From assembly GCA_963422265.1 (NCBI GenBank), contig OY729416.1, forward strand, positions 480,001 through 544,000: DNA of 64,000 nucleotides. Direction: 5' to 3'. Under the pieces are notes generated by a model. That model was not told the origin of the DNA. It searched no databases and saw nothing but the letters and a program-made list of their open reading frames with translations. This document shows, piece by piece, positions 16,515 to 33,405 of this stretch. The position numbers and the translations under genes were made by a program. Numbering within the stretch: position 1 is the first letter of the stretch; every line of letters begins with the position of its first letter. This DNA comes from Thermodesulfobacteriota bacterium. Lineage in GTDB: Bacteria; Desulfobacterota_D; UBA1144; Nemesobacterales; UBA2774.

Positions 16515-16654
16515 GGGGTCTCGTAACTTACTTACCCTACCCTTCTATATTTTTGCCTATCTGTGCTTGAATGTGTATATTCGGTACCAAAAGTGAATAA
16601 TGACTAGAAAAGCTATCCACCACCTACTATTCACGCTATACCAGTACTTAGATT

Positions 16655-19255
16655 ATGCGAAAACAGTCGCTTTTTGATTCATTAAAAGAGTCCTCTCTTA
16701 ATTGGCGTAAGGGTGGATATAGTTGTGATAATTATCCTCTGATTAGCGAAGTTCTCACCTACCAGATGGAGACGCAGGGGGATAATCCGAGCCTGAGGTT
16801 TCTGCGCGAGCCGCAGTTTCTCGCGCTTGAAGTGTATTGGTATGTTCGTCTCAAACTGAATACCCCTCGTATCATAGACCTTTACAAGCTCTACTACGGG
16901 GACGATAAGAGAAATTTTTTTGAGATTCTCGGCGTTCCCATATCTAGGGATGCGTTAGAATGGGCGACCATAGAGGCCGTTATCAAAAAAATCAAAAGCG
17001 ATCCCGATTTTGTCTCTGAAAAGAAAATTCAGGCATTGCACGAGGCGGCAATGTTGGACTATCCAAGTTACATCCTCGCCTTGGCAATGGGTGCCGGCAA
17101 AACCGTGCTAATCGGGACTATTATAGCCATAGAATTTGCCCTGTCTCTGCGCTACCCCAAGGGATACTTCATGAAAAACGCCCTGGTTTTCGCTCCCGGT
17201 ACGACGATCATAGAATCCTTGCGTGAACTCAGCAATATGCCTTATGAAAACATTCTACCACCCGATCTCTATCGAGATTTTCTTGCCAACCTGAAAATTG
17301 AGTACCCGAGCAAAGAGAAAGATATACAGGCACAAAGGGGGAGCATCTATAACCTAATAGTGACAAATACGGAGAAGATCAGCCTGCGCGCTAATAGGAG
17401 AAGAAATCAGCAACAGGAAGCATTTGAGCGTGAGGAACTGCGAGCCAACCTGAGGTTGCAAAAGATTACCAGCCTGCCCAATCTTGGTGTCTTTTCAGAT
17501 GAAGCTCATCACACTTACGGCAACACTTTCGACAAACTGAAACGGGTACGGCAAACAATAAATTATATCCACAAGGAAACGCCTATTGTAGCGGTGATCA
17601 ACATGACTGGGACGCCTTACTACAAAAAGCAAATCTTGAAAGAGGTAGTTGTCTGGTATGGGCTGGGAGATGGCATTAAAGATAATATACTTAAAGACCT
17701 AGTAGATGGGATTCATCAATATGATATTGGAGAACAATCAGAACAGGGTGTGTTCAGGGACATTATCAAGGAATTTTTTGCCCATTATGGCGATGTTTCA
17801 CTCCCTGATGGTTCACAAGCTAAGATTGCCTTTTATTTCAAGACGCAGGAACATCTGAATAATTCCCGTCTTTTGATTGAACAAGCAATGACAGAGATAG
17901 GAGAAAATGTAGCTCAGATATTAATCAATACGCAACAATCAAGCGCAACCGAGATTGGTGAGTTTAAGCGTCTTAACAACCCCAACAATCAAAAACGGGT
18001 TATTCTGCTGATTGGCAAGGGCGTGGAAGGATGGAACTGCCCGAGTCTATTTGCCTGCGCGCTCATCAAGAAGCAGACCACTAGCAATAACTATGTATTA
18101 CAGGCATCTACCCGATGCCTACGACAAGTGCCAGGAAATAGGCATTCAGCGAAGGTCTTTCTCGATTATAGCAATGCTAAGATTTTGGACAAGGAACTAC
18201 AAGATAACTTTGGCACCAGCCTTGACCGCCTTAGTGCCGGGACGAAGGATAAACAGACCATAACCTTGCGCATTATGAAAACGCAATTACCAAAGCTGGA
18301 AATTACGCGGACGGTTAGGCGTGCCGTGCGAACTGAAGCGGTGCATGGTGAAATCAAGCTGGAAAGGCCGCAACCACAGGAAAGTCCTGCAATACTGCGA
18401 AATATCTTGACGCTAGACTTCAGAGGCCCCAGAGAAATACTGATGCCCACGGGCGATACGAAAGAACTGCCTACTGGCGAACAAATGACAAACTGCCATA
18501 CTGCTGCTTGGAAAATCGCCACGAGATACCATCTCCCGGTCATGCCGATTTTGAGAAAACTCCGTTTCTTATATCCTGATGCCGAAATGCCGAATAACCA
18601 TTTATACGGACTGCACCGGCAGGTTGAAAAACAGCAGACAAACTACGAGACAGTTGAAGAAAAAATAACCGAAGTGATGGCGTTGATCAGACTTCAGGAT
18701 GAAAATGGGGAAGACGTCTTTGAAAAAAATGAGGACGACATTTATGTTCACCATTTGCGTTTGCTAAAGAGGACTTATGAAAGAATGGAACAGGATGGAT
18801 TGTTTGCTAATAGTAAAGACTATCAAGACAAGCATGATCTGAGCTTTCATTATACGCCCTATAGTTTTGATAGCGAACCGGAGCGTTCCTTCTTTCATCA
18901 AATTTTATCAAGCCTCAACACCAACCCCGACGACGTGGAGACGTTTCTATTTACAGGTGGATTAACCGATCCTAAGAAGACTGATTTTCATTTTGAATAT
19001 TTGGGTGAGGATAAACGGTATCATCGCTACTTCCCCGATTTTGTGATTGTGAAAAAGACAGGTGAGTTTTACATCGTCGAAGTCAAGGCTGAGAGAGATC
19101 TAAGGGATAAAACAGTGGAAGCGAAGAAAAAGGCGGTGGAAAGATTGCAAAAAATGCAGCCTGATAAGTTCAAGTATAGTGTTGTCTATGCATCTACGAC
19201 TTCTATAAACACAACAGAAATCAAGCCGGTTTTGGATTGGGCGAAAAACACATGA
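16655..19255 (+). CDS. res: Type III-like restriction subunit (SF2 helicase + C-terminal PD-(D/E)XK nuclease)
   Basis: Walker A MGAGKT, DEAHH, TGTP, EGWNCP; nuclease motif YFPDFVI...IVEVK. Confidence 0.88.
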   Translation: MRKQSLFDSLKESSLNWRKGGYSCDNYPLISEVLTYQMETQGDNPSLRFLREPQFLALEVYWYVRLKLNTPRIIDLYKLYYGDDKRNFFEILGVPISRDALEWATIEAVIKKIKSDPDFVSEKKIQALHEAAMLDYPSYILALAMGAGKTVLIGTIIAIEFALSLRYPKGYFMKNALVFAPGTTIIESLRELSNMPYENILPPDLYRDFLANLKIEYPSKEKDIQAQRGSIYNLIVTNTEKISLRANRRRNQQQEAFEREELRANLRLQKITSLPNLGVFSDEAHHTYGNTFDKLKRVRQTINYIHKETPIVAVINMTGTPYYKKQILKEVVVWYGLGDGIKDNILKDLVDGIHQYDIGEQSEQGVFRDIIKEFFAHYGDVSLPDGSQAKIAFYFKTQEHLNNSRLLIEQAMTEIGENVAQILINTQQSSATEIGEFKRLNNPNNQKRVILLIGKGVEGWNCPSLFACALIKKQTTSNNYVLQASTRCLRQVPGNRHSAKVFLDYSNAKILDKELQDNFGTSLDRLSAGTKDKQTITLRIMKTQLPKLEITRTVRRAVRTEAVHGEIKLERPQPQESPAILRNILTLDFRGPREILMPTGDTKELPTGEQMTNCHTAAWKIATRYHLPVMPILRKLRFLYPDAEMPNNHLYGLHRQVEKQQTNYETVEEKITEVMALIRLQDENGEDVFEKNEDDIYVHHLRLLKRTYERMEQDGLFANSKDYQDKHDLSFHYTPYSFDSEPERSFFHQILSSLNTNPDDVETFLFTGGLTDPKKTDFHFEYLGEDKRYHRYFPDFVIVKKTGEFYIVEVKAERDLRDKTVEAKKKAVERLQKMQPDKFKYSVVYASTTSINTTEIKPVLDWAKNT

Positions 19256-21078
19256 AACTTGTAAAGCTTCATGTGGAAGGTTTTAGAGGTTTTGCTGAAA
19301 AGACCACTGTAAAATTTGATGATCTTACGGTATTTGTGGGGAAGAACGATGCAGGCAAGTCTTCGATTCTTGATGCTTTAAACATTTTCTTTGAAGCAGG
19401 CAAGATAGATATAGGTGATGTGAACACTGGACACCAAAATACCAGCTCGTCTTCTGTAGTCATCTCATGCGAATTTACCGACTACCCTGATAAATTGGTT
19501 ATAGATGCCTCAAATGAAATATCACTATATGAAGAATACTTACTGAATTCCGATCAAAATATACACATTAAGAAGGAATACGTTGGCAAGCATTTAACAT
19601 CTCAAGTTTATCTTGTGGCTCATCATCCTAGTAAAGATAATTTAGGAGACCTATTAGAACTTAGTATTAACGACTTGAAAAAACGTGCGCGAGATATTAA
19701 TGTCGATTTATCAGATGTTACTCAAACAATAAAAGCTGAAATACGCCATGCTATATGGAATAAGTGTGACGCGCATGCGTTTTTAAAAGAAAAAGAGATT
19801 CCAATAGATAAAAATGCTAAAGGTGAATTCAAGTCTATTGAAAAGAGTCTTAAAAAGTACATGCCAATATTTGCTTTGTTCAAATCTGATAGGCCAAATC
19901 TGGATCAGGATTCCGAGGCTCAAGACCCTCTAAAATTGGCTGTCAAGGAAATATTGAAAGAAGGAAAACAAGAACTTGATAAGGTTGCTTCTAAGATACG
20001 AGATAAATTACAACAGGTGGCTGATAGGACTGTAGAGAAAATAAAAGAGATGGACCCTGAAATCGCGAAACAACTAACCCCAAAAGTCGGTGAGCCTGCG
20101 TGGGATAAGGTATTCAAAATATCTCTCACAAGTGAAGAAGAAGTTCCAGTGAATAAACGGGGAAGTGGTGTGAGAAGACTGATATTGCTGAATTTCTTTA
20201 GGGTAAAGGCAGAAGAAAAAGCGAATGAGAAAGACGTAATTTATGCTATTGAAGAACCTGAAACATCTCAACACCCAAATCATCAGAAAATGTTAGTTAA
20301 TGCTTTTGAAGATCTTGTGCATCGCGGAAATTGTCAGGTATTTGTGACAACGCATACGCCAATGCTGGCTAGCCTTGTTCCAGATAATTGCCTGCGCTAT
20401 GTAAAAATTGATAACGGGGAGCGAAAGGTCATTGATGAGTTGGGCGACGAAGAAAAGAAAGAAATTGCTATTAGTCTAGGAGTATTGCCTGATAACAATG
20501 TGAAGTTGTTTTTATTTGTTGAAGGGAAAAATGATGAAAACTTTTTGAAAGGAATTGCGAAATTATTTTCCCTCGACCTGCAAGAAAAGGAAAAACGCGG
20601 AGAGTTGATTTTTATCTCTATGGGAGGAGGCAGTAATAGCAATCTGCAATACTGGGCAAATAAACTAGCAGAATTAAATAGGAAAGAGATGTATATCTAT
20701 GACAAGGATAATGATAATTCCCCTGATAGTGGAGAGAATGAAAATATCACTTTATTCCGAACTTGTAAAAGCGAGATGGAAAATTATATACATCCCGATA
20801 CCATCAAGGATGCTTACAAGGAACAGAATATAGAGATAAAAATAGAAGAAAACGAAATTCAAGATAATACTGATGTTCCAGTGTTGATTGCCAAGAAAGT
20901 TTATCAAGTAAGCGAAGGGCAAAAGAATTGGTCTGACATTACTGAGAAAGAAAAAAAACAAAAGGAGTCTAGAGTGAAGAGAATTCTTAATACATCTGCC
21001 GTAGAAAAGATGACTGGAGAACAGTTACGAGAAATAGGAGGATGGGATGAGATTAAAAATACACTGAACGCACGATGA
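19252..21078 (+). CDS. OLD-family ATP-dependent nuclease (ABC-ATPase + TOPRIM)
   Basis: GKNDAGKS, signature RGSGVRR, IEEPETSQHP, TTH; TOPRIM VEGKND and DKD. ATG at 19252 overlaps the res stop (ATGA). Confidence 0.88.
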   Translation: MKLVKLHVEGFRGFAEKTTVKFDDLTVFVGKNDAGKSSILDALNIFFEAGKIDIGDVNTGHQNTSSSSVVISCEFTDYPDKLVIDASNEISLYEEYLLNSDQNIHIKKEYVGKHLTSQVYLVAHHPSKDNLGDLLELSINDLKKRARDINVDLSDVTQTIKAEIRHAIWNKCDAHAFLKEKEIPIDKNAKGEFKSIEKSLKKYMPIFALFKSDRPNLDQDSEAQDPLKLAVKEILKEGKQELDKVASKIRDKLQQVADRTVEKIKEMDPEIAKQLTPKVGEPAWDKVFKISLTSEEEVPVNKRGSGVRRLILLNFFRVKAEEKANEKDVIYAIEEPETSQHPNHQKMLVNAFEDLVHRGNCQVFVTTHTPMLASLVPDNCLRYVKIDNGERKVIDELGDEEKKEIAISLGVLPDNNVKLFLFVEGKNDENFLKGIAKLFSLDLQEKEKRGELIFISMGGGSNSNLQYWANKLAELNRKEMYIYDKDNDNSPDSGENENITLFRTCKSEMENYIHPDTIKDAYKEQNIEIKIEENEIQDNTDVPVLIAKKVYQVSEGQKNWSDITEKEKKQKESRVKRILNTSAVEKMTGEQLREIGGWDEIKNTLNAR

Positions 21079-22805
21079 AAAAACCTAAATCTCTCAAAAT
21101 CACCCCTATCAAGGGGCGGCCGATGCTGCATTGGGTTGGTAAAAAGCCGCTGGACGTGGTGCGGCATTTCCCGGCGCAGGTGTGCGAGACGGTTGGGGTA
21201 ACAAGCCCGCCTGCTGAACCTTCTTACCGGGAATTTAAGAAAAATAGTTACAATCTGCTGTTTCACGGTGACAACAAGGAAATTTTATCGTCACTAATTG
21301 TGGCCGGGTTCCGTGGCAAGGTGGCTTTGATTTATATTGACCCGCCGTTTGACTCAGGGGCGGATTATGTACGCCGGGTGAAACTGCGCGGGCAATCTGA
21401 AAAGCTGGAGGGTGAAGGGCATACTTCCATTGAGCAAGCACAATACACTGATATCTGGGCGAACGATAATTATCTGCAGTTCATGTATGAGCGGCTGATA
21501 CTGATGCGAGAGTTATTGAGTGATAAAGGTAGTATCTATCTGCATTGCGATTGGCATAAGAACCATCACCTGCGATTCTTATTGGATGAAGTGTTTGGGG
21601 AGGAGAATTTCGTGAATGAGGTTGTTTGGTATTACAAAGATGCTTCAGGAATTATGAAAAAAGGATTTAGAAAGAAGCACGATACCGTCCTTATTTATGC
21701 CAAAAGTGAAAAATTCTATTTTAACTCTGATGTTGTAAGGCAGGATTATGGAGCATCAACAAAAAAAGCGGCTGAATCGGGAACTGTTTCTTTTGGCAGA
21801 CCCACAAAAATAAATTCATTAGGTAAATACCCAGATGATGTTTTAGAAATTTCCATCATTAACAGCCAAGCAAAAGAGCGGCTTAATTTTCCCACCCAAA
21901 AACCCGAGGACCTGTTGGAGCGCATCATAAAAGCTTCTAGTGATGACGGTTCCATTGTTTTAGATTGCTTTTGTGGTAGCGGCACCGCGGCTGCCGTAGC
22001 CGAGAAGCTGGGCCGCCGCTGGATCATGGCGGACCTGAACAAAGGGGCAATCAAAACCACTATGAAGCGATTGCAAGGCATTATTAACAGAAAGAACGGA
22101 GACCTTGCAGAGAAAAATGGACGTGGATTTATTCATTATCGGGTGAATAACTACGATTTTGCCAAACAGATCGAGCTCAAGAAAATAATCATCTCCAAAT
22201 ATGGAGTTCAAAAGGACAATGGGGATTTATTCTTTGATGGCTTGTATCAGGGGCAGTTGGCGAAGATTATTGACCTGAATAGACCTTTGACGCGGCTGGA
22301 CATTCAGATCATCAAGGATGAAATTCAAAACAACCGCCCGGAGGAAACACGCGACATCACTGTATTCTGCAATGGTTCAGAGTTAGAAATAATCAATGAA
22401 CTTGCCCAAGATAAAAACCCCATCAACAAAATCAAAGTTTGCGACATCCAGCAAGATGGCATGGTAACGAATCAGCCCGCAGAAGCGGACGTGTGCATCA
22501 CTAAACAAGGCGTGAAGGCAGAGGTAATGATCAATGACTATATCAGCCCTTCCATACTGGCACGTATGGATATAGACCGCACTATATTTGATGAGCAGAT
22601 TGACGATTTCCGAGCACAGATTGATTGCGTGCTGATTGACAACGACTATGACGGTGAGCGTTTCAACATTGTGGAGAGCGATTTACCACAAAGGAAAACG
22701 GATTATATCAGGGGCGAGTACCTGCTTACCCTCCCACACCCTGATGCCAAAGTGGCAGTAAAAATTGTGGATATGCTGGGCGAGGAAGTCGTTGTGGTGA
22801 GATAG
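21075..22805 (+). CDS. mod: Type III-like DNA methyltransferase (beta class)
   Basis: Catalytic IYIDPPF precedes SAM-binding FCGSGT; FPTQKPE; C-terminal VAVKIVDMLGEE. Confidence 0.9.
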   Translation: MKKPKSLKITPIKGRPMLHWVGKKPLDVVRHFPAQVCETVGVTSPPAEPSYREFKKNSYNLLFHGDNKEILSSLIVAGFRGKVALIYIDPPFDSGADYVRRVKLRGQSEKLEGEGHTSIEQAQYTDIWANDNYLQFMYERLILMRELLSDKGSIYLHCDWHKNHHLRFLLDEVFGEENFVNEVVWYYKDASGIMKKGFRKKHDTVLIYAKSEKFYFNSDVVRQDYGASTKKAAESGTVSFGRPTKINSLGKYPDDVLEISIINSQAKERLNFPTQKPEDLLERIIKASSDDGSIVLDCFCGSGTAAAVAEKLGRRWIMADLNKGAIKTTMKRLQGIINRKNGDLAEKNGRGFIHYRVNNYDFAKQIELKKIIISKYGVQKDNGDLFFDGLYQGQLAKIIDLNRPLTRLDIQIIKDEIQNNRPEETRDITVFCNGSELEIINELAQDKNPINKIKVCDIQQDGMVTNQPAEADVCITKQGVKAEVMINDYISPSILARMDIDRTIFDEQIDDFRAQIDCVLIDNDYDGERFNIVESDLPQRKTDYIRGEYLLTLPHPDAKVAVKIVDMLGEEVVVVR

Positions 22806-22907: not shown

Positions 22908-24290
22908 ATGATCTGTAATAGGCAATTTGAAATAAACAATCTTGGGGTCATAAGGAACGGGTCTTTTGAAGTGAAACCGCTTACCCTTTTTTGCGGCCCG
23001 AATAATAGTGGTAAGACCTGGGCAATGTATTCGCTATATCATTTTTATTCTTTTTTAAGACATGGCTTATCGCTGGCGCCTGTACTGGAAGAAAGTATCA
23101 ATATGTTACAACAAGGGTCTCGCCAATTTAATTTTATTGATTGGCTACAGCGTAACCACGAAGAGATCATTGATATTTGCAAGCTCCGAGTTTCAGAATC
23201 CCTACCCGATTTGTTTAACAGCCCATCTACAACGTTTCAGAACGCATCTTTCGGTTTGGTGATGAATACTGATGATTGGAGGCATGCTCTACAAACTTCA
23301 CAGGAGAAAACATATACGGATAAAAGCAAGAAGGAGACGATACGTTTTTCAAAGCCCGAAGGTGGAGAAATCATTGATATTTCTCATCAAGGAGCAAACG
23401 AGGATTTTCTGAAACGTAGTCTAGCGGCTTTTTTGAAAGACTTTATTGCGAATTGGTTGGTTCCTGGTATTGAAAATGCCGATATTTTCCTGATGCCTGC
23501 CGAGCGCAATGGTCTCCATTTATTTTTCCGTGAGCTCAGCAGTCGCCGCACGGCATTACTGCATCATGCCTCCAAAGAAAATATTGATATTAGCGAATTA
23601 CTGCGTGACGTCATACGTTCCCGCTATGCGATTCCAATCGCTAAATATATTGACTGGCTGAATAGTCTCGCGGAAATAAAAAAAATGGGTAGGGGTAAGT
23701 TTCACAGCTACGCGGAGAAATTGAAAAAATTGGCTGGCGGTGCGTATAGAGTTGATGCGAGGACCAGCGACATTACCTTCAAACCCTACCAGAAAAAACG
23801 TGATAGGAAACCAACGAAATTGTTGGGGTTGCATACTACGTCCAGCACAGTAAAGAGCCTGTTCGGGCTGTGGTTTTACCTGGAGTATCAGGCAAAATCT
23901 GGAGATACGTTGATGATTGATGAGCCAGAACTCAATATTCACCCTGAAAATCAGCGCAAGTTGGCGAGGTTTTTCGCCACGCTAGTCAACGCCGGCTTAA
24001 ACATAGTGATCAGCACGCATAGCGATTATATGGTGCGTGAGTTCAATTCACTTATTATGCTAAGTCGAGATAGGGACAGTAAGCTAAGGAAGAAACATGG
24101 TTATGCCAAAGAGGAAGTGTTAGAGCCGAAACAAGTCGGAGCATATTTATTTGATAAGCAAAAAATAGAGGCATTTGAGATTACACCGGAAGATGGTATC
24201 TACGCCACTACGTTTGATGACGTGATTCGTGACCTGAATAGGGTCAACGACGATATCTACTACAGCTTGAAGGAAGCGCAAGATGAGTAG
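22908..24290 (+). CDS. ABC-type ATPase (AAA_15/AAA_21-like), defence-associated
   Basis: GPNNSGKT, PAER, LMIDEPELNIHP, ISTHS. Confidence 0.85.
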   Translation: MICNRQFEINNLGVIRNGSFEVKPLTLFCGPNNSGKTWAMYSLYHFYSFLRHGLSLAPVLEESINMLQQGSRQFNFIDWLQRNHEEIIDICKLRVSESLPDLFNSPSTTFQNASFGLVMNTDDWRHALQTSQEKTYTDKSKKETIRFSKPEGGEIIDISHQGANEDFLKRSLAAFLKDFIANWLVPGIENADIFLMPAERNGLHLFFRELSSRRTALLHHASKENIDISELLRDVIRSRYAIPIAKYIDWLNSLAEIKKMGRGKFHSYAEKLKKLAGGAYRVDARTSDITFKPYQKKRDRKPTKLLGLHTTSSTVKSLFGLWFYLEYQAKSGDTLMIDEPELNIHPENQRKLARFFATLVNAGLNIVISTHSDYMVREFNSLIMLSRDRDSKLRKKHGYAKEEVLEPKQVGAYLFDKQKIEAFEITPEDGIYATTFDDVIRDLNRVNDDIYYSLKEAQDE

Positions 24291-24852
24291 AAAACTCATT
24301 GAGTTATTTCAACGGTCTATTAACTCTGATTCTTGTTTGCAAAGAGAAGGTAGAAGCTGGCTGCTTCAGGATAATAATTGCAAAATAAGTTTGAGAGTTT
24401 CTAATCGGAACTCGCTCGGCTTTAGTTTGGATCATAAAAGTCAGCCTTCTCCTTTCCCTTTTTTCTCATCTAAGCCGCCATCGGGAATCGCTACAATGTG
24501 TGATGCAATCGTCGCGTTATCGTATAAAAATAAAGCTTATATATTTGTCATTGAGCAGAAAACAAACAATCAGGATAGTTATAAGAAACAATTAGCCAAT
24601 GGCAAATATTTTTGTGATTGGTTACTAATGCTGCTAAAAGAACATAAGCATTATAGCGACACACCCATTTTCATCGGTCTGCTATGCTGGAGGCCTCGTG
24701 AGAAATCGCCTGATAAGGGTACAACAACACATGGGATTAGTAAAGATAAAAAACAACATTCATTGTTTAATATGCTTTACGAAACCTCGAACCAAGAAGA
24801 AATCTACTTACAAGAACTGGCAGACGATGCCAATGGCCAATCTTTAGTATGA
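24283..24852 (+). CDS. Putative PD-(D/E)XK nuclease partner of the ATPase
   Basis: MCDAIV...IFVIEQK...KQL pattern; 8-nt overlap with the ATPase stop. Confidence 0.6.
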   Translation: MSRKLIELFQRSINSDSCLQREGRSWLLQDNNCKISLRVSNRNSLGFSLDHKSQPSPFPFFSSKPPSGIATMCDAIVALSYKNKAYIFVIEQKTNNQDSYKKQLANGKYFCDWLLMLLKEHKHYSDTPIFIGLLCWRPREKSPDKGTTTHGISKDKKQHSLFNMLYETSNQEEIYLQELADDANGQSLV

Positions 24853-24979: not shown

Positions 24980-25246
24980 ATGTGGGAACATAAGAAAATA
25001 CTGATAACGATGAAGACCTACCCCAATTTGTCTGCCAAATACGATGAATTAGTTTGTGCCTCCGGCATTTTAGAAGATGGTTCATGGATACGTCTTTATC
25101 CGATCCCTTTTCGGCAGATGGATTATGACAGGCAATACAGAAAATACGACTGGATAGAAATCGAGACTCAGCGGCGCGGGCAAGACATGTGGCCAGAGAG
25201 TTTTACGCCAATTCCTGATTTTCTATTATTGTCAAAAAGGCAATAG
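24980..25246 (+). pseudogene. Probably truncated N-terminal part of a conserved 'KTYP...VC.G...WIRLYP' protein
   Basis: 88 aa with KTYPNLSAKYDELVCASG and WIRLYPIPFR; family members I recall are considerably longer. Confidence 0.55.
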
Positions 25247-25329: not shown

Positions 25330-25820
25330 ATGTTAACAGATCAAGAAATTCAAGACCTTATAACATCTCACAAAAAGATAAAAGAAAAAGTTCCTGCTGA
25401 AGGATACAAAGAAAATAATGAACACAGGCGTTGCACTTTGGCATTGGAGTCTATCCCCGAAATTAGTAATGTGTTTTCGGTCTTCATTCGTCAAAACAAG
25501 ACATTTATAGAAAACTTTTCTATTGGCTTGCGTTACAAAACAGAAGATAAAGTATTAGGTTCCGTGACGCTTATTCGTTACAATGGTTCTCACGGGGAGA
25601 AGAGCCGAAGGGTCACTACGACAAACCACATATACATCGTATAACTGCCAAGGAATTGAGATCAGGCAGTGTTAAGCCACAGGAAAGTCAGAGAGAAATT
25701 ACCGATACTTATAGGACGTTTGAAGAAGCTCTTAGAGTTTTCTTTGACGATGTTGGCGTAAGAGACTATTTAAAATACTTCCCTGACTTAAATCAAAGGA
25801 AACTTTTCAATGGACATTAA
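25330..25820 (+). pseudogene. Frameshifted His-motif gene (DUF6978-like) upstream of the DUF1828-like gene
   Basis: First frame reads ...LIRYNGSHGE; from 25611 another frame reads GHYDKPHIHRITAKEL...YRTFEEALRVFF...NGH*, stopping at 25818-25820 and overlapping the next start. Confidence 0.7.
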
Positions 25821-26580
25821 TAGAATTATATCCCTGTTACAAGACAGGACAAGAACTGGTTTTGATATTTATGAACGCAGATCGGGCAAGTATCAACTTA
25901 TAAACCCTGTACTCCATGAGGACGGTGATATGGTGGATATATATCTGCAAGATAGTCCTAAAAGTGAAAACCATATACGCATCTGTGATTTTGGCATGGC
26001 GTTAATGCGCCTTTCTTACACTTATGAAATTAATACCGATTCCCGCCATAGAATTTTTGACAGCATTCTTATAAACAATGGCGTTCAAAATGACGCGGGA
26101 AATCTTTACTTGGATACGACACTCAATATGCTTTATGAGAGCATCCTTCAGTTCGCAGGCTGCGTGCAAAAAGTGTGCAACATGCGCTATTGGAGCAGAG
26201 AAATCGTCATAAGCGCATTTTATGATGACCTAAAAGAATATACAACTACTGAGCTAAGAAACTTTAACCCAATGCCTAATGAATCCCCTTTGCCTAATTA
26301 TGATATTATAAGCGTGGACTGGTTACTAACTCATAATAACCGCAGCCTTTATTTATTCGGAGTAAACACTAACGACAAAGCCAAAAGCACTGCCATTTCT
26401 TTGCTGGAATTCCAGAAGCAAAAATTGAATTTTATAAGTCTCGTCGTGCATGAAAATATGGAGGAACTTGGTAGAAAAGAGAGAATGTACCTTACCAAGA
26501 ATGCCGATACGCAATATCCGACCTTGGGAGATTTCCGAGACAAAGCGCCCTCGGATATTCCGAGACTCGCGGCGGCGTAA
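25810..26580 (+). CDS. DUF1828/DUF1829-like protein
   Basis: INPVLHEDGDMVDIYL...IRICDFGMAL N-terminal pattern; C-terminal alpha/beta domain. Confidence 0.65.
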   Translation: MDINRIISLLQDRTRTGFDIYERRSGKYQLINPVLHEDGDMVDIYLQDSPKSENHIRICDFGMALMRLSYTYEINTDSRHRIFDSILINNGVQNDAGNLYLDTTLNMLYESILQFAGCVQKVCNMRYWSREIVISAFYDDLKEYTTTELRNFNPMPNESPLPNYDIISVDWLLTHNNRSLYLFGVNTNDKAKSTAISLLEFQKQKLNFISLVVHENMEELGRKERMYLTKNADTQYPTLGDFRDKAPSDIPRLAAA

Positions 26581-26916: not shown

Positions 26917-28188
26917 TTGCCATCTTCCTTCAGATTCATTCACACCGCAGATATCCATCTAGACAGCCCGCTTAAGGGACTCGCCGGCCAGGACAAATAT
27001 ATAGCCGAACGTATTCGCACTGCCACACGCGATGCTTTTAACCAGCTTGTTGAACTCTCTATTGGAGAGCGAGCCGACTTTTTTATCATTGCTGGCGATC
27101 TTTACGATGGCGACTGGCGCGATTACAACACCGGACTGTTCTTCGTTCGTCAGATGGGGCGTCTCAAGAGTGCTGGCGTACCCGTGTATCTTCTATACGG
27201 CAATCACGATGCTGAAAGCCAGATTACTCGTCACCTCAACTTACCAGAAAATGTGAATACTTTTGGGAGCAGAAATCCAGTCACTTTCAAAATTAATAAT
27301 TTGGACGTCGCCTTGCATGGGCAGAGCTTCCGTCAACGCGATATCGCCGACAATCTAGTACTTAGTTATCCCGATCCAGTTGATAGCATATTTAACATTG
27401 GCGTTCTTCATACTGGACTTGGCGGTATAGGTGGTCATGAAAATTACGCGCCATGCGCTCTCGATGATCTTATAAACAAGGGATACGATTATTGGGCGCT
27501 TGGCCATGTACACAAGTCCAGGGTACTCAATGAGTATCCGCATATCGCCTTTCCCGGTAACTTGCAAGGGCGCAATGCGAACGAGACCGGCGATAGGGGT
27601 GCCTATATAGTCACGGTGGAAGATGGTGAGATTGTTGATTTCTCAGCCTTACACAGTGACGTTGTGCGATGGGCTCTTGTTCCCGTTGAGATGGATGGCG
27701 TTGCAAGCATTGACCAAGTTATTGATCATATTCGGGATGCGATTGAGGACGCCGTTAAAAATCTGGCAGACAGTCGCTTGTTGGTGTGCCGCTTGCGATT
27801 ACAGGGTAGCACGGAAATTCACGAGAAGATTTTAACTTCCCTGCATAGTCTCACCGCCGAAGCGCGCTCAAGCGCGCTTGGTCTAGGGAGCGACGTAGCA
27901 TGGGTCGAAAGAGTTGTTGTTGAGACGAAAACGGTTACAGATTCAAGAGCTTCGGTGGAACGTGAAGATACTGTTGGTGAATTGATGCAAATGTTGCAAG
28001 AAGCGAGTGCCGACACGGATTTCATAGAAGAGCTTAAAGCTGATATCGGCGAGATGATCGGACGTTTGCCTCCCGATCTGCGCAGTGAAGTTGAGGATGC
28101 AGTGCTCAAGGCGGCGATTGGTGGAGACTACGCTAAGCTCATTGCCGAAGCCAAGCCTTACCTGTTAGCGCGCCTGATAGAGGGATAG
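26917..28188 (+). CDS. Mre11/SbcD-like metallophosphoesterase nuclease (YhaO-type)
   Basis: ADIHLDSP, AGDLYD, GNHD, YWALGHVH, PGNLQGR. Confidence 0.92.
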   Translation: MPSSFRFIHTADIHLDSPLKGLAGQDKYIAERIRTATRDAFNQLVELSIGERADFFIIAGDLYDGDWRDYNTGLFFVRQMGRLKSAGVPVYLLYGNHDAESQITRHLNLPENVNTFGSRNPVTFKINNLDVALHGQSFRQRDIADNLVLSYPDPVDSIFNIGVLHTGLGGIGGHENYAPCALDDLINKGYDYWALGHVHKSRVLNEYPHIAFPGNLQGRNANETGDRGAYIVTVEDGEIVDFSALHSDVVRWALVPVEMDGVASIDQVIDHIRDAIEDAVKNLADSRLLVCRLRLQGSTEIHEKILTSLHSLTAEARSSALGLGSDVAWVERVVVETKTVTDSRASVEREDTVGELMQMLQEASADTDFIEELKADIGEMIGRLPPDLRSEVEDAVLKAAIGGDYAKLIAEAKPYLLARLIEG

Positions 28189-28196
28189 ATATAGAC

Positions 28197-31100
28197 ATGC
28201 GACTAAGACGTCTTGACCTTCTTCGCTACGGATGCTTTACGGATAAATCGTTTGAACTGCCTGTTAACCAATTTGATTTTCACATAATTTTCGGTTCCAA
28301 CGAAGCTGGCAAATCTACCGCGCTTGCGGCGATTGAAGACCTGATTTTTGATATGCCAAGGCACTCGCCCTATAACTTTTTACATGACTATACGAGTATG
28401 AGAGTCGGAGCCATTCTTGAATCTGAAGGTTCGTCACTGGAATTCGTCCGAAGGAAAGGGAGTAAGCATACCCTACTCGATATGAATAACTTGCCGATAA
28501 AAGGTGGTGAGGGACGTCTAAAACCTTTCCTTGCTGGGGTAGATAGATCATTTTTTGAGCGTATGTTTAGTCTCAACCACGTTCGGCTCGAGGCGGGAGG
28601 GCGAGAGATATTGGAGGCAAAGGATGAGATTGGACAGATGTTATTTTCAGCCGGAGCTGGCATTGTAGGTCTGAAGGGTCGGCTTAATAATATGCATAAC
28701 GAGGCTGATGGCTTGTGGGCACCGAGAAAAGCGGGACACAGAAAATACTATCAGGCTAGGGACAAGTTAGATGAAGCAAAGCGAGAATTGCGCGAAAAGA
28801 CATTGCCGGCAAACAAGTGGCAAAAACTAAGGCTAGATTATGAGAAGGCTGAAGAAAACTACTCTAACGCTAAAGAGAAATGTGAACAAGCGGAAGCAGG
28901 AAGAACGAAGCTCAATCGGATTCGCAGGGTATATAGATACGTCAGCCGCAAAGCACGATTAGAAGAAGAGATAAAAACTCTTAAAGATGTTGCCTCTCTA
29001 CCCGAGGATGCTAGGCAGAAACTTGACGCAGCCAACCGCCAAAAATCTGAATCCTCGGCACAGATCGAAGTACTCTCCAAACAACTGGAGGAAGCGCGTC
29101 GAAAATTGGAAAATCTGACATATGACAAAGCATTGGTAATACAAGCGGATGATGTAAAACAGCTTTCCGAACGGCGTATTGAGATTCGCAAGGAGAAGAC
29201 TGACCTACCCAAACGGCAGGCAGAACTGAACGCGGCTGAAATAGAAATGTGGCGTCTCGCAAAGGAGCTTGACTGGCACGAGAAGAATGGAGTCGATAAG
29301 CTGATTGAGCGCATTCCCAAACAAGTCAAGATAAAAGAGCTGCGATCTCTGCTTGTCCGTCGTAGAGAAATCTATTCAGGTATTGAAAGGCACTCCGAAG
29401 ATCTGAAAGAATCTCAAACCGATTTAGACAAAATACGTAAAAGCCTTGATGGAATGGGCGAGGAGAAAGACGTCTCCGGATTATCCGCCGTAATTAGGGC
29501 AGTGCGAGAGATGGGTGATATAACAACCCGCCTGCGTAACGCTGAACAAAAACATCTGGAGGTGCAAGGTTATGTTAATGGGTTGTTTGCCTCGCTACAT
29601 CCGGAGCTTCCAAGTGAAAAGGACGTTATAGATATAAAGGTGCCGCCGCGTCCAAGTGTCCAGAGTCTCCGCGACGAGATTAAGAATGGGGAGAGGCTAT
29701 TCCAAGAGAATTTTAAGCAGATTGAATCCATCAAACAAAAACTTAATAGTAATCGTAGCGCTTATGAGCACGCCGCGCGAGAAGGGAATACCGTTACTGC
29801 AGAAGAGCTTAAAAATGCAAGAAGCCACCGAGATACTCTCTGGAAGCTGGTGAGAAGCAAGCATATAGAAGAGGTAACGATCTCTGATAAACATCTATGT
29901 GATTATGATAAGGAACTAGACGATCTTCCCGCATCCTTAGAAATAGCGATGCGAAAGGCTGACGAGGTTGCGGATAGTAAGTTCGAGAATGCGGAGGTAT
30001 CTGGACGGCTAGCGGAAATGTCTCGTAACATCAACGAGCAAGAAGAAAAACTAGATCAATTACGTGAATTGGAAGAGAGTTTCAGAAAAGAAGGCCAATA
30101 CCTGAAAAATAGTTGGATATCTCTATGGAATAATGCTCCGTTCGAACCCCTTGATCCAGACGCCATGCTAGAGTGGATGGAAGCACATAATAAGCTGCTA
30201 GAGGCTATTGGTCGACGAGACGAAACAAGAGCGGCACTGATGTTCGTGTGTAGAGAAGAATATGAGGCTAAAGAGAATATTATGAATGAATTGAAAGCGT
30301 TTGGCATTGATAAATCTACTTTAGAGAAGAAAAGCCTACAGATGATCCTATCACGCGCCTCTGACTTGGAAGATAAATGCAAGAAAGAAGCACAGGAAAG
30401 GATTCAATTAAAAGAGAGCCTGCAGAATGCTTTAGACAGAGTTGAAAAACGCCAAAGGAGACTTCGTCAAGTTAAAAAAGATCAGGAAGAGTGGAAGGAG
30501 CTTATATACACGGCTTTAAGCGGTGTTGGGCTTGCGAGCGATTTGAGCTTGGAAGCAGTAGATGCACAGATCGATCTTATAGACCAGATGAAAGTTAAGG
30601 AAAGAGAAATAAATAATCTGCGTTATGATCGCATTGAAAAGATAAAGCGGGATATCGCCAATTATGAGTCAATGGTCAAGGAAGTTGTTAAGAAGGTAGC
30701 TGAGGACATTTCAGGCACAGGGGCTGACGATGCCGTTCTGCAAATCGAAAGCCGTTTGCAAGAAGCGCAGCGCCTGCGTACCCTCCAGGAAGAGACTAGA
30801 GAAGAGATTGATAAACTTACCAGAAAAGTATCTGAAGCGGAGAGAAAATATCAGGAGGTAGAGGCATCTGTCAAAAATCTCCGTGAAGTCGCTGACGTTA
30901 AAACAAATGAAGAGTTAAGAGAAGCTATAGAGAAATCTGACAGGCTTCGCCGTCTGAATAGCGAGTTAAAAGAGACACTTCAAATGCTAGAGAATGAAGG
31001 CGATTGTTTTACGGTTGAAGATTTAGAACGGGAATGCGCTGACGTCGATGACATAGATCAGGTTACCGCAAAAGAAACGGCAATAACCAAAGAATTAGCT

Positions 31101-31748
31101 CAACTAAGAGAAAGTGTGATTGAGACCTCTGGAACAAAGTCGGAGGCTAAGAGGGAGCTTGATGCGGTTGGCGGCGAAGATGCAGCTTCACGCGCTGCTG
31201 CAGAGCGGCAGGAAGCACTCGCCGAGATGCGTGAGGTGGCTGAGCATTACGTGCGGTTGCGTACATCAACAATGTTGCTGCAATGGGCAATTGACCGCTA
31301 TAGGCGAGAAAAACAGGCACCTCTCCTCAAAAGCACTGGAAAAATTTTCAGAATAATCACGGGTGGCTCGTTTGAAGGCTTAGGCATAGACTATGATGAT
31401 AAGGATAGGGCGCAGCTTATCGGGCTGAGATCAGACGGAAAGACTGTAGGGGTAGATGGCATGAGCACGGGAACGAGAGATCAACTCTACCTTGCACTAC
31501 GCGTGGCTTCCATCGAAGATTACCTAGATCACGCAAACGCCCTGCCATTCATTGCCGACGATCTTTTTATCAATTTTGATGATGATAGATCCTCAAAAGG
31601 CTTCCAAGTTCTTGAACGACTCGCGGACAAAACCCAGGTACTCTTCTTTACGCATCATAAGCATTTGGTAGATATAGCTCTATCTACCCTAGGAAAGTCA
31701 ACTCATATAGTTTCTTTGCAGGATAAAAAAACCAGTCCTTTAGATTAG
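28197..31748 (+). CDS. YhaN-type SMC/Rad50-like ATPase (AAA_27)
   Basis: GSNEAGKST, long coiled coil, MSTGTRDQLYLALR, DDLFINFDDDR, FTHH. Confidence 0.9.
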   Translation: MRLRRLDLLRYGCFTDKSFELPVNQFDFHIIFGSNEAGKSTALAAIEDLIFDMPRHSPYNFLHDYTSMRVGAILESEGSSLEFVRRKGSKHTLLDMNNLPIKGGEGRLKPFLAGVDRSFFERMFSLNHVRLEAGGREILEAKDEIGQMLFSAGAGIVGLKGRLNNMHNEADGLWAPRKAGHRKYYQARDKLDEAKRELREKTLPANKWQKLRLDYEKAEENYSNAKEKCEQAEAGRTKLNRIRRVYRYVSRKARLEEEIKTLKDVASLPEDARQKLDAANRQKSESSAQIEVLSKQLEEARRKLENLTYDKALVIQADDVKQLSERRIEIRKEKTDLPKRQAELNAAEIEMWRLAKELDWHEKNGVDKLIERIPKQVKIKELRSLLVRRREIYSGIERHSEDLKESQTDLDKIRKSLDGMGEEKDVSGLSAVIRAVREMGDITTRLRNAEQKHLEVQGYVNGLFASLHPELPSEKDVIDIKVPPRPSVQSLRDEIKNGERLFQENFKQIESIKQKLNSNRSAYEHAAREGNTVTAEELKNARSHRDTLWKLVRSKHIEEVTISDKHLCDYDKELDDLPASLEIAMRKADEVADSKFENAEVSGRLAEMSRNINEQEEKLDQLRELEESFRKEGQYLKNSWISLWNNAPFEPLDPDAMLEWMEAHNKLLEAIGRRDETRAALMFVCREEYEAKENIMNELKAFGIDKSTLEKKSLQMILSRASDLEDKCKKEAQERIQLKESLQNALDRVEKRQRRLRQVKKDQEEWKELIYTALSGVGLASDLSLEAVDAQIDLIDQMKVKEREINNLRYDRIEKIKRDIANYESMVKEVVKKVAEDISGTGADDAVLQIESRLQEAQRLRTLQEETREEIDKLTRKVSEAERKYQEVEASVKNLREVADVKTNEELREAIEKSDRLRRLNSELKETLQMLENEGDCFTVEDLERECADVDDIDQVTAKETAITKELAQLRESVIETSGTKSEAKRELDAVGGEDAASRAAAERQEALAEMREVAEHYVRLRTSTMLLQWAIDRYRREKQAPLLKSTGKIFRIITGGSFEGLGIDYDDKDRAQLIGLRSDGKTVGVDGMSTGTRDQLYLALRVASIEDYLDHANALPFIADDLFINFDDDRSSKGFQVLERLADKTQVLFFTHHKHLVDIALSTLGKSTHIVSLQDKKTSPLD

Positions 31749-31950: not shown

Positions 31951-33405
31951 CTACCTCTTCCAAAACATCGGGGAAAAGAATACTAGAATAGCGTATAGCT
32001 CAAGCCTTCCAAGAAGCATAAGGAAGCACGTCCATAACTTTGAGAAATCAGAGAGAAATTGGTAGTTACGCGTCGCTCCTACTTCCTCAAAACCTGGACC
32101 TACGTTGCCAATCGTAGCAGCGGATAGGGATAGTGCTCCCATTATTGAGATGTCCTCAACCAATAGGATTACTAATACTGAAAGAATGAAAATAGCTATG
32201 TAGAGAAGAAAAAAGCTTGTAATGCCGGATGCTATGTCATCGCTAACGGCTCTCTTATCTATTCTAAGGGGAAGGATGGCATGTGGCTTTATAAGGTGGT
32301 TTATTTCCCTAATCCCTTTCTTAATTAAAACTAGTATTCTGATTACCTTAATCGAGCCCGTTGTAGATCCTGCGCACCCACCGACGAACATGAGAATAAG
32401 GAGAGCAAATACGGCGAATTTAGTCCAGAGATTAGGGTCCGTCGTGCTGAAACCCGTCCCAGTCATTATAGAAATTATCTGAAATGACGCGTATCTAAGC
32501 GATTCGAGGTAGCTTGGGTAATGGCGTAACCACAATTCGACACTGACCAACAGCACAAAGGCTACTAACAGAGACGCAAAGAATTTCAGCTCGGAACTCT
32601 TTAAGAGTTTTGAGAATTTGCCGGTAAAAAAATAGTATAGGAGGAGGAAATTAGTCGCTCCCAAAATCATAAACAATATAATAATAAACTCTATAAAGGG
32701 ATTACCGTAGCCTCCTATACTACCGTTATTGACTGAGAAGCCTCCCGTCGACACGGTGCTGAACGAGGTAGCGATGGCGTCAAAAATTGGCATACCAGCA
32801 AAGTAGAGCAAAGCTATCAAGATTACGGATAGTATAATATAGACTAGCCATAAGCTTTTCGCCGTCTTGGCTACGTGCGGGGTTAGTTTTTCCGTAGTTG
32901 GACCTGGGGCTTCAAGACTCATAAGCTGCATACCACCTACGGACAGCTTAGGCAAAACGGCAATGCACAAAATAATAATCCCCATGCCGCCTAACCATTG
33001 GGTGAAACCCCTATAAAACAATATACCGTGAGGGAGACTTTCTACATTGGAGATTACGGTAGCTCCCGTAGTCGTATAACCTGAGACGGACTCGAACAAC
33101 GCGTCCATTGGACTAGAAGAAACGCCTATGAACAAATACGGAAGTGCCCCGAAAAGGCTTGCCGCCATCCAACACGTGAAGGCGATAAAAAAAGCTTCCT
33201 TTCTGCCTATCTCAACTATACTTCCCGGCTCTTTAGTTGCTAGTTTTAGGGTAGCCCCTGAGCTGGCCGTTATTAAAGCAGTGATCCAAAAAACATGGAA
33301 CTTGCCGTCTCCATAGATAAAAGATGGGATTATGGGAATTAAGAACAGCAAGCCAAAGAATTTAAGAAAAATCCCGACTACGTGAAACGAACGCCTTAAA
33401 TTCAT
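31951..33405 (-). CDS. trkH: Trk potassium uptake membrane protein
   Basis: FESVSGYTTTG, QWLGGMG, GGCAGSTTG, GNVGPG, GRLE. Confidence 0.93.
   Translation of the reverse strand: MNLRRSFHVVGIFLKFFGLLFLIPIIPSFIYGDGKFHVFWITALITASSGATLKLATKEPGSIVEIGRKEAFFIAFTCWMAASLFGALPYLFIGVSSSPMDALFESVSGYTTTGATVISNVESLPHGILFYRGFTQWLGGMGIIILCIAVLPKLSVGGMQLMSLEAPGPTTEKLTPHVAKTAKSLWLVYIILSVILIALLYFAGMPIFDAIATSFSTVSTGGFSVNNGSIGGYGNPFIEFIIILFMILGATNFLLLYYFFTGKFSKLLKSSELKFFASLLVAFVLLVSVELWLRHYPSYLESLRYASFQIISIMTGTGFSTTDPNLWTKFAVFALLILMFVGGCAGSTTGSIKVIRILVLIKKGIREINHLIKPHAILPLRIDKRAVSDDIASGITSFFLLYIAIFILSVLVILLVEDISIMGALSLSAATIGNVGPGFEEVGATRNYQFLSDFSKLWTCFLMLLGRLELYAILVFFSPMFWKR

Follow-up and report, generated by a model that had tools for sequence, protein, structure and literature searches.

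In a 64,000-nucleotide stretch of a Thermodesulfobacteriota bacterium genome (GenBank assembly GCA_963422265.1, contig OY729416.1, positions 480,001 to 544,000 of the forward strand; hereafter the window), a gene for an OLD-family ABC-ATPase/TOPRIM nuclease, old, lies between the restriction (res) and methyltransferase (mod) genes of a Type III-like restriction-modification (R-M) operon and shares an ATGA overlap with each of them. The relatives of the res-mod pair and those of OLD are distributed independently, and old is compositionally foreign to its genome. We put the probability at about 70% that OLD is an autonomous abortive-defense cassette that was recently embedded in the R-M operon and borrows its expression and mobility. 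An earlier note, made from the letters of the window, had suggested that OLD may be an R-M-embedded guard that responds to inhibition of the Type III complex. A dedicated guard within a conserved res-old-mod system is not supported by comparison with relatives, since OLD was absent from all 69 res-first junctions surveyed and none of 80 OLD relatives was found between a Type III res and mod. What the note had read off the DNA itself was borne out: Pfam, PADLOC and structure matches agree with the identities of the three genes, both ATGA overlaps are present, old is the more AT-rich gene (GC content 0.37 versus 0.44), and no Gabija or retron partner accompanies it, in that the ten island proteins scanned include neither a UvrD helicase nor a reverse transcriptase (RT). 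Like the note, we infer a likely abortive, anti-phage role.

Independent distributions of the res-mod pair and of OLD

For the R-M side we surveyed 86 loci of Res relatives, comprising 80 metagenomic loci (the best 80 of 210), 3 viral loci, 2 from genomes and 1 from a plasmid, and forming 51 clusters at 95% identity. The mod gene abuts res in 53 of these loci, follows it after a gap of more than 150 bp in 16 (12 gaps exceed 400 bp and 4 measure 205 to 277 bp) and lies upstream in 1; a further 15 loci ended too soon and 1 had no mod. The res-before-mod order, which the earlier note had contrasted with the classical one, is therefore real but is the norm of this family (69 of the 70 loci with mod located), and we reject it as a peculiarity of this locus. 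A more distant Res relative on a Nitrosomonas plasmid (32% identity over part of the protein) is mod-first. At one locus (L127) a distant OLD-like gene follows mod.

The res-mod junction is a slot for interchangeable, unrelated genes. Its occupants include genes for a DUF3644 HEPN protein (PDC-S19), a BRO protein (PDC-S13), AbiD, SoFic and a NucS-like protein (PDC-S11), along with IS200-like genes. Among the five closest loci (Res identity 66 to 78%), the junction is empty in G080 and holds a single 250-aa gene without assigned function in G752, DUF6978/DUF1828 genes plus two open reading frames (ORFs) in G059, PDC-M34A plus a Ymh HEPN gene in G735, and TIR plus 8xMP genes in G832. The mod relative in G059 (L173:11747-13508) is itself split into ORFs of 82 and 512 aa near residues 62 to 82, which may reflect a frameshift, phase variation or an assembly error. 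One 95% Res cluster mixes empty (L149, L160) and filled (L153) junctions, and a contig of sequencing run X5 with a related res-mod pair (81 to 87% identity over four pieces) has ~1.25 kb between the genes and joints at equal depth into the DUF6978-DUF1828 region. The DUF6978/DUF1828 module of the window, downstream of mod here, is 71.7% identical in nucleotides to L173:9670-10916 in G059, which there lies inside the junction. The genome under study also holds two more Type III-like loci, L222 and L223, with cargo between mod and res in each. In L222 (G000:C1:986000-1000000, minus strand) the cargo consists of a 127-aa ORF, a DUF1828 gene, a PD-T4-4A-like ATPase gene and a 157-aa ORF, which are distant paralogs of the modules downstream of mod in the window.

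OLD belongs to a large family (of 8000 candidates, 7812 scored), which at E 1e-40 is represented in 267 plasmid records, most of them enterobacterial. Genomic contexts were compared for the best 80 of at least 575 genomic loci (36 to 48% identity); neighbors were assigned by hand after cluster representatives had been scanned with Pfam and PADLOC (the main batches took ORFs of at least 200 aa, mostly trimmed to 450 aa). In 20 of the 80, an R-M or BREX gene is at most two genes away. Among the 50 well-flanked loci, defined by at least 3 kb on both sides, 35 have no such gene within two genes. Kept out of the R-M count were L022, L028 and L071, whose R-M genes are further off, and Type IV-like neighbors (GmrSD in L030; Mrr in L050, L059 and L075). 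Four OLD relatives directly precede a Type III mod (L003, L004, L007, L008), three of them behind a DUF2130 gene, and another two (L010, L073) have an SNF2 gene on one side and mod on the other. On a tree of 84 OLD sequences, 58 of them labeled, R-M association required 19 changes, compared with 17.9 +/- 1.8 in 1000 shuffles, and sister pairs differ in context; the association is scattered over the tree without phylogenetic clustering. In four plasmid regions viewed, one relative has a Type II R-M pair next to it and the other three have no R-M neighbor. A search of 119 further genomes from the phylum placed res in G059 and G080 and OLD in G098 and, within a BREX-like locus, in G024; no genome had both. 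A phage collection yielded one partial, unannotated match, and an atlas yielded generically named clusters only.

No conserved partner emerged from these variable neighborhoods. The most recurrent neighbor, DUF2130, occurs at 9 of 102 loci, directly upstream of the OLD relative (L004, L007, L008, L010, L013, L023, L029, L030, L060), and four of these nine stand ahead of a Type III mod. An nSTAND3 protein follows the OLD relative in six loci (L040, L182 to L184, L187, L191) and a HamA/HamB-like pair in L054, L056, L057 and L062 (HamA shown for L062 only). A UvrD-like helicase is adjacent in 0 of 80 loci; a PIF1-like helicase is adjacent in L039, UvrD is four genes off in L028, and an RT lies two genes downstream in 2 of 80. 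A lone relative with 36% identity, annotated "AAA family ATPase," is carried by an IncHI2 plasmid (L224; NZ_CP043545.1 114832-126445) between Tn7-like transposition genes and a sil metal-resistance cluster, with similar matches on many enterobacterial plasmids.

The composition of old also sets it apart. GC and third-codon-position GC are 0.366 and 0.322 in old, 0.439 and 0.479 in res, and 0.448 and 0.503 in mod, against a genome GC of 0.441, and only 2.3% of 1239 ORFs in the genome reach the AT-richness of old. ATGA overlaps are common in this genome, yet not the rule (37 of 513 close same-strand ORF pairs, using a simple ORF caller).

Since a 2372-base contig from run X4, another sample of the same study, matches positions 18753 to 21124 without differences and bridges both junctions, we reject misassembly as the origin of the res-old-mod arrangement. 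Runs X4 and X5 each contain one contig that joins 16538 to 22676 (49 letters on the short side), and in X7 another loose end falls at 16538. This pattern suggests alleles lacking or replacing res-old-mod at the purK site. X7, which may be an RNA run, also has short pieces over old, but these are uninformative about expression. Contig depth in X4 is 67 for res, 89 for old and 227 to 258 for the flanks, and in X5 old is almost uncovered. These depths are compatible with a cassette carried by part of the population, but as contig depth does not measure a share of cells, only the bridging contig and the joints were used. Neither target-site duplications nor terminal repeats were found at the ends of the island or of old, and matches to promoters and terminators were no more numerous than in shuffles (10 versus 13.6 and 7 versus 6.8).

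The three proteins

OLD is a predicted full ABC-ATPase/TOPRIM nuclease with intact ATPase and two-metal residues. It comprises an ABC-ATPase (residues 1 to 410), a TOPRIM nuclease (~415 to 540) plus a helical domain at the C terminus (542 to 606), and it has the features that define the OLD family: an ABC ATPase at the N terminus that bears the Walker A, signature, Walker B and H-loop motifs, and a C-terminal TOPRIM two-metal set. Pfam AAA_15 matches residues 1 to 372 (E 3.8e-77), and OLD-like_TOPRIM_1 matches weakly, below the cut-off (E 4e-5). The best PADLOC model for the ATPase part is AriA (residues 1 to 372, E 4.3e-64), the Old model covers residues 186 to 606 (E 2.2e-26), and the GajA model matched too; the C-terminal 198 aa had no PADLOC match at 1e-12 and no DUF4435/AriB match. 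The predicted structure (pLDDT 81.8) has GajA 8sm3 and Ts OLD 6p74 as its top Foldseek matches. It aligns to Ts OLD 6p74 with Z 18.0 (rmsd 4.1, 236 residues aligned), and the whole-protein model aligns over residues 1 to 608 to GajA 8x5i_D (Z 17.4, rmsd 13.5, 429 aligned). Across an alignment of 32 sequences no variation is seen at K36 (Walker A), in the NKRGSG signature, at E334/E335 (Walker B), at H368 or at K576, nor at the TOPRIM acids E424, D428, D484, E508 and E510, while D486 is present in at least 90%; the spacing of this acidic set agrees with that of Ts and Bp OLD. An alternative in-frame TTG start lies at 19237, and the C terminus is ~5 to 9 residues shorter than in the closest relatives.

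The label Type III-like is justified by the sequence features of the pair, namely a separate Mod with an internal target-recognition region and a Res in which an SF2 helicase is followed by a PD-(D/E)xK nuclease. Res carries MGAGKT (145 to 150), DEAH (282 to 285) and Q483 to R490, reading QAxTRCLR, which we take to be a variant of helicase motif VI, and a C-terminal PD-(D/E)xK nuclease (P794-D795, E809-x-K811); the helicase and nuclease motif residues are invariant in 51 sequences. Its Pfam matches are ResIII (E 2.6e-7) and a TnsA-like endonuclease (E 2.4e-5). No PADLOC model matched Res, and a profile search of PDB sequences was also empty. The predicted Res structure (pLDDT 83.6) has an SF2 fold that aligns to EcoP15I Res 4zcf_C (Z 16.9, rmsd 4.5, 368 aligned), but RadD scores higher (Z 20.4), so the fold does not single out EcoP15I among SF2 proteins. 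In Mod, DPPF (89 to 92) precedes DCFCGSG (297 to 303), presumably the beta order, and a conserved C-terminal domain follows; the target-recognition region between them (~185 to 270) is variable in the alignment and AT-rich (GC 0.353). Mod matches Pfam N6_N4_Mtase (E 6.5e-53), PADLOC MTase_III (its best match there, E 4.2e-74) and EcoP15I Mod 4zcf_A (E 1.1e-23).

Function of the embedded nuclease

We propose that the res-mod pair is a mobile, two-gene Type III-like unit, res-first by nature, into whose junction unrelated defense cassettes would have been swapped repeatedly, yielding a two-layer locus built by cassette exchange. As the first line, Mod would methylate and Res would cut unmethylated phage DNA. 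The amount of OLD would be tied to res through translational coupling. A predicted hairpin at 19249 to 19275 spans the old ATG and would tie its translation to ribosomes completing res, but this is suggestive only, as its z-score of -1.55 was equaled by 15 of 200 shuffles and is not significant. The ABC-ATPase oligomer of OLD itself would keep the protein inactive until a sign of infection, and not the loss of Res or Mod, switched it on. By analogy with P2 OLD, aberrant DNA ends or hairpins may be the trigger, a proposal we hold at somewhat under even odds; a phage anti-restriction protein, as for PARIS, would be a distinctly less probable trigger, and some other signal a less probable one again. 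Once activated, OLD would cut tRNA or DNA, with about even chances for each, and the infection would be aborted. The tight ATGA overlaps could arise because any occupant of the slot must avoid cutting off mod expression, and embedding would in turn supply OLD with a promoter and co-transfer.

Several observations weigh against this reading. The earlier note had made its case depend on OLD homologs being associated with R-M loci; res-old-mod did not recur and most well-flanked relatives lack such neighbors, yet the remaining 15 of 50 do adjoin R-M or BREX genes, a substantial share (30%) that stands without a background rate for comparison. OLD may serve as a backup at those loci without physical coupling. 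Two of the 80 relatives, L015 and L049, are embedded in Type I operons as hsdS-old-hsdM. The mod-first locus L223 of the same genome (G000:C1:1358000-1372000) carries between mod and res a gene for a 656-aa OLD-like ATPase/TOPRIM protein from a different family (24% identity, probability 98.6), along with a 170-aa ORF, a HEC-02A-like ATPase gene and a 188-aa ORF. The nine closest OLD relatives (P0002 to P0010, 49 to 80% identity) lie above the identity range of the context survey, and a young res-old-mod lineage may exist among them. A DNA query for their contexts gave one weak OLD match in the order of G120 (251 genomes) and none in 33 genomes of the phylum of G121, and contexts were not obtained for the class of G123 (301), the order of G124 (301) or the family of G735 (115); the best match of a protein query of 5 and 115 genomes was 47%. 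Finally, no activity of any protein of U1, the clade that OLD resembles (see below), was found in the literature searched.

Three other explanations deserve consideration, each of which we regard as improbable to the same degree. In a dedicated, PrrC-like guard, the Mod/Res complex would bind and silence OLD, and a phage inhibitor of the complex would free it. Coupling by ATGA at both junctions, the pairing of an ABC-ATPase sensor with a toxic nuclease as in PrrC and PARIS, the hsdS-old-hsdM operons and the position of the closest OLD relatives outside the context survey all speak for such a guard. However, PrrC is found almost only in Type I loci, whereas the OLD family lies within an R-M operon in only 2 of 80 cases and never in a Type III res-mod junction; none of the 69 relatives of the res-mod pair carries OLD in the junction; and the R-M association of OLD is unclustered on the tree. 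The OLD neighbors span Type I, Type III, IIG, MmeI, ISP and BREX systems, which leaves no single shared subunit to guard. A complex prediction for Mod with the OLD ATPase domain (residues 1 to 412) scored 0.00 against a mark of 0.32 and is uninformative either way.

Alternatively, OLD might be an accessory nuclease that acts on DNA ends made by Res, degrading cut phage DNA or sensing self-restriction, without binding the complex. Ts OLD both nicks and degrades DNA (PMC7049728), a response to DNA ends and aberrant structures has been proposed for P2 OLD (10.64898/2026.07.10.737580), and a quarter of the OLD relatives (the 20 of 80 above) adjoin R-M or BREX genes. Against this stand the lack of an R-M neighbor in most OLD relatives and of nuclease cargo in most res-mod units. 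The gene could also be a hitchhiker without a defense role, a selfish, addiction-like or DNA-processing gene in a tolerant site, as would suit the uncharacterized state of U1, the failure of the archaeal class 5 of OLD proteins to give defense (PMC12796447) and the carriage of OLD relatives in Tn7-like and IS-rich plasmid regions, but the patchy spread of OLD over many phyla, its recurrent neighbors (Hachiman, GmrSD, Mrr, nSTAND3, AbiEii, BREX) and the matches of other slot occupants to PADLOC defense models form the pattern of a defense gene.

The locus as it stands carries the known nesting of defense genes within modification-based systems over to a res-first Type III-like family that has been little studied, and it shows that translational coupling, even when tight and on both sides, cannot be taken as evidence that genes are dedicated partners. 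The res-mod junction of this family is also a source of candidate defense genes, and the widespread U1 clade should be easy to assay for trigger and target. We found no report of a Type III system guarded by an OLD or TOPRIM protein, of OLD inside a Type III operon, of genes between mod and res or of this res-first family in a literature search that did not extend to paywalled journals and preprint supplements. A more speculative idea, which we think unlikely, is that OLD proteins of clade U1 act as single-chain equivalents of PARIS, which directly sense phage anti-restriction proteins or DNA mimics, and were selected beside R-M. If true, it would explain the repeated recruitment of U1 beside Type I, Type III, IIG and BREX systems, and the copy here would back up a res-first Type III-like family, the first case of a Type III enzyme with a second line triggered by anti-restriction and with no need for binding.

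Setting of the operon and comparison with known systems

The operon opens an island of ~15 kb after purK (Table 1). Downstream of mod follow, in order, PD-T4-4-like genes, a PDC-M19B-like fragment, the DUF6978-DUF1828 module and an Mre11-like/AAA_27 pair. The fragment, an 88-aa ORF at 24980 to 25246, has a match to PADLOC PDC-M19B that is limited to the first 77 of the model's 269 positions and is probably a truncated or frameshifted defense gene. Pairs of the Mre11-like/AAA_27 type also adjoin OLD relatives in L020, L022 and L062.

Table 1. Features of the island, in positions of the 64,000-nucleotide window (position 1 is its first letter)
Feature	Position	Strand	Description
Left breakpoint of variable cassette	16538-16539	.	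just after purK
res	16655-19255	+	866 aa, intact; Type III-like restriction subunit
ATGA overlap, res stop/old start	19252-19255	+	
old	19252-21078	+	608 aa from ATG, intact; OLD-family ABC-ATPase/TOPRIM, clade U1-like
ATGA overlap, old stop/mod start	21075-21078	+	
mod	21075-22805	+	576 aa, intact; N6-adenine methyltransferase, Type III Mod architecture
PD-T4-4-like two-gene module	22908-24852	+	ABC ATPase + small partner; PADLOC PD-T4-4_A E 1.3e-115, PD-T4-4_B E 7.1e-17
DUF6978 + DUF1828 module	25330-26580	+	PDC-M24-like; downstream of mod here
Mre11/SbcD-like nuclease + AAA_27 coiled-coil ATPase	26917-31748	+	island end, before cation-transport gene at 31951

OLD classes are defined in PMC10568477 and PMC12796447, and three of them can be set aside for this protein. 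Gabija (Class 2) membership is rejected by the lack of a UvrD-like helicase directly downstream in the window, retron (Class 3) membership by the lack of an RT among the island genes, and PARIS (Class 4) membership by the fusion of ATPase and TOPRIM in one 608-aa ORF, full length in relatives, rather than split into AriA and AriB. Like the Class 1 proteins P2 Old and Ts OLD (6p74), OLD is a single fused ABC-ATPase/TOPRIM protein without a dedicated partner gene, and E377, D381, D431, D433, S478 and E480 of Ts OLD have counterparts here by motif and spacing (PMC7049728). It differs from them in that identity is only 17 to 20% in structural alignments, its relatives are often found in defense islands, and it has the C-terminal helical domain (in the model, with the invariant K576) that Ts OLD lacks; in this it resembles Class 2, where K562 of Bp OLD lies within such a domain (PMC7049728). 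Among characterized proteins, P2 OLD is reported to be an abortive tRNase that is kept inactive as a tetramer until DNA structures trigger it (10.64898/2026.07.10.737580), and further reports concern a Vibrio Class 1 OLD that nicks DNA and, in a second study, P2 OLD and tRNA (PMC12392090, PMC12445682).

The motifs of OLD make it a probable U1-like protein. It shares a length of ~600 to 630 aa and the motifs GKNDxGKS, SDR, NKRGSGxxRL and YA[IV]EEPETSQHP with the clade U1 proteins in Dataset EV1 of Yang et al. (EMBO Rep, PMC12796447), as compared by eye in cells cut at 400 characters, and NKRGSG shows in only three rows of that dataset, all of them U1. The same source catalogs U1 as an uncharacterized clade, and its passages on the clade are silent on R-M context.

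The R-M pair itself compares with Type III EcoP15I (4zcf). They have in common a Mod with DPPF before the S-adenosylmethionine-binding motif and a variable region between the two, and a Res with SF2 helicase and C-terminal PD-(D/E)xK domains. They differ in gene order, in the absence of a Res match among PADLOC models or PDB sequences and in the QAxTRCLR form of motif VI.

PrrC/EcoprrI and PARIS resemble OLD in placing an ABC-ATPase-controlled toxic nuclease near an R-M system. PrrC is confined to R-M loci, unlike the OLD family described here, and its nuclease is a HEPN domain as opposed to TOPRIM. Its embedding is reported to be almost exclusive and in Type I loci (Payne et al., 10.1101/2024.01.29.577857).

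Close parallels are also found in embedded defense genes, including HEC-04, which are likewise same-strand genes nested between core genes as interchangeable cargo (10.1101/2024.01.29.577857). According to Payne et al. (10.1101/2024.01.29.577857), an embedded gene runs in the same direction as its host system in 96.7% of cases, and HEC-04, an embedded ABC-TOPRIM fusion, defends when cloned alone, for which its Walker A and metal residues are needed. The HEC-04 model is absent from the best 25 of the 108 PADLOC matches for OLD, and the catalytic Glu of HEC-04 is residue 319, versus 424 in OLD. ABC-ATPase/TOPRIM genes are among the commonest embedded cargo (10.1101/2024.01.29.577857, PMC12839542), OLD-ABC modules are described as backup effectors of BREX loci in at least 1242 taxa (PMC12839542), and OLD also occurs as Tn7 cargo (PMC8649781). 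The embedding surveys treat Hma, BREX, DISARM and Type I systems, and Type III junctions do not figure in the parts of them available to us (10.1101/2024.01.29.577857, PMC12839542). The phenomenon itself is the published embedding of independent defenses (10.1101/2024.01.29.577857), met here in the junction of a res-first, Type III-like pair.

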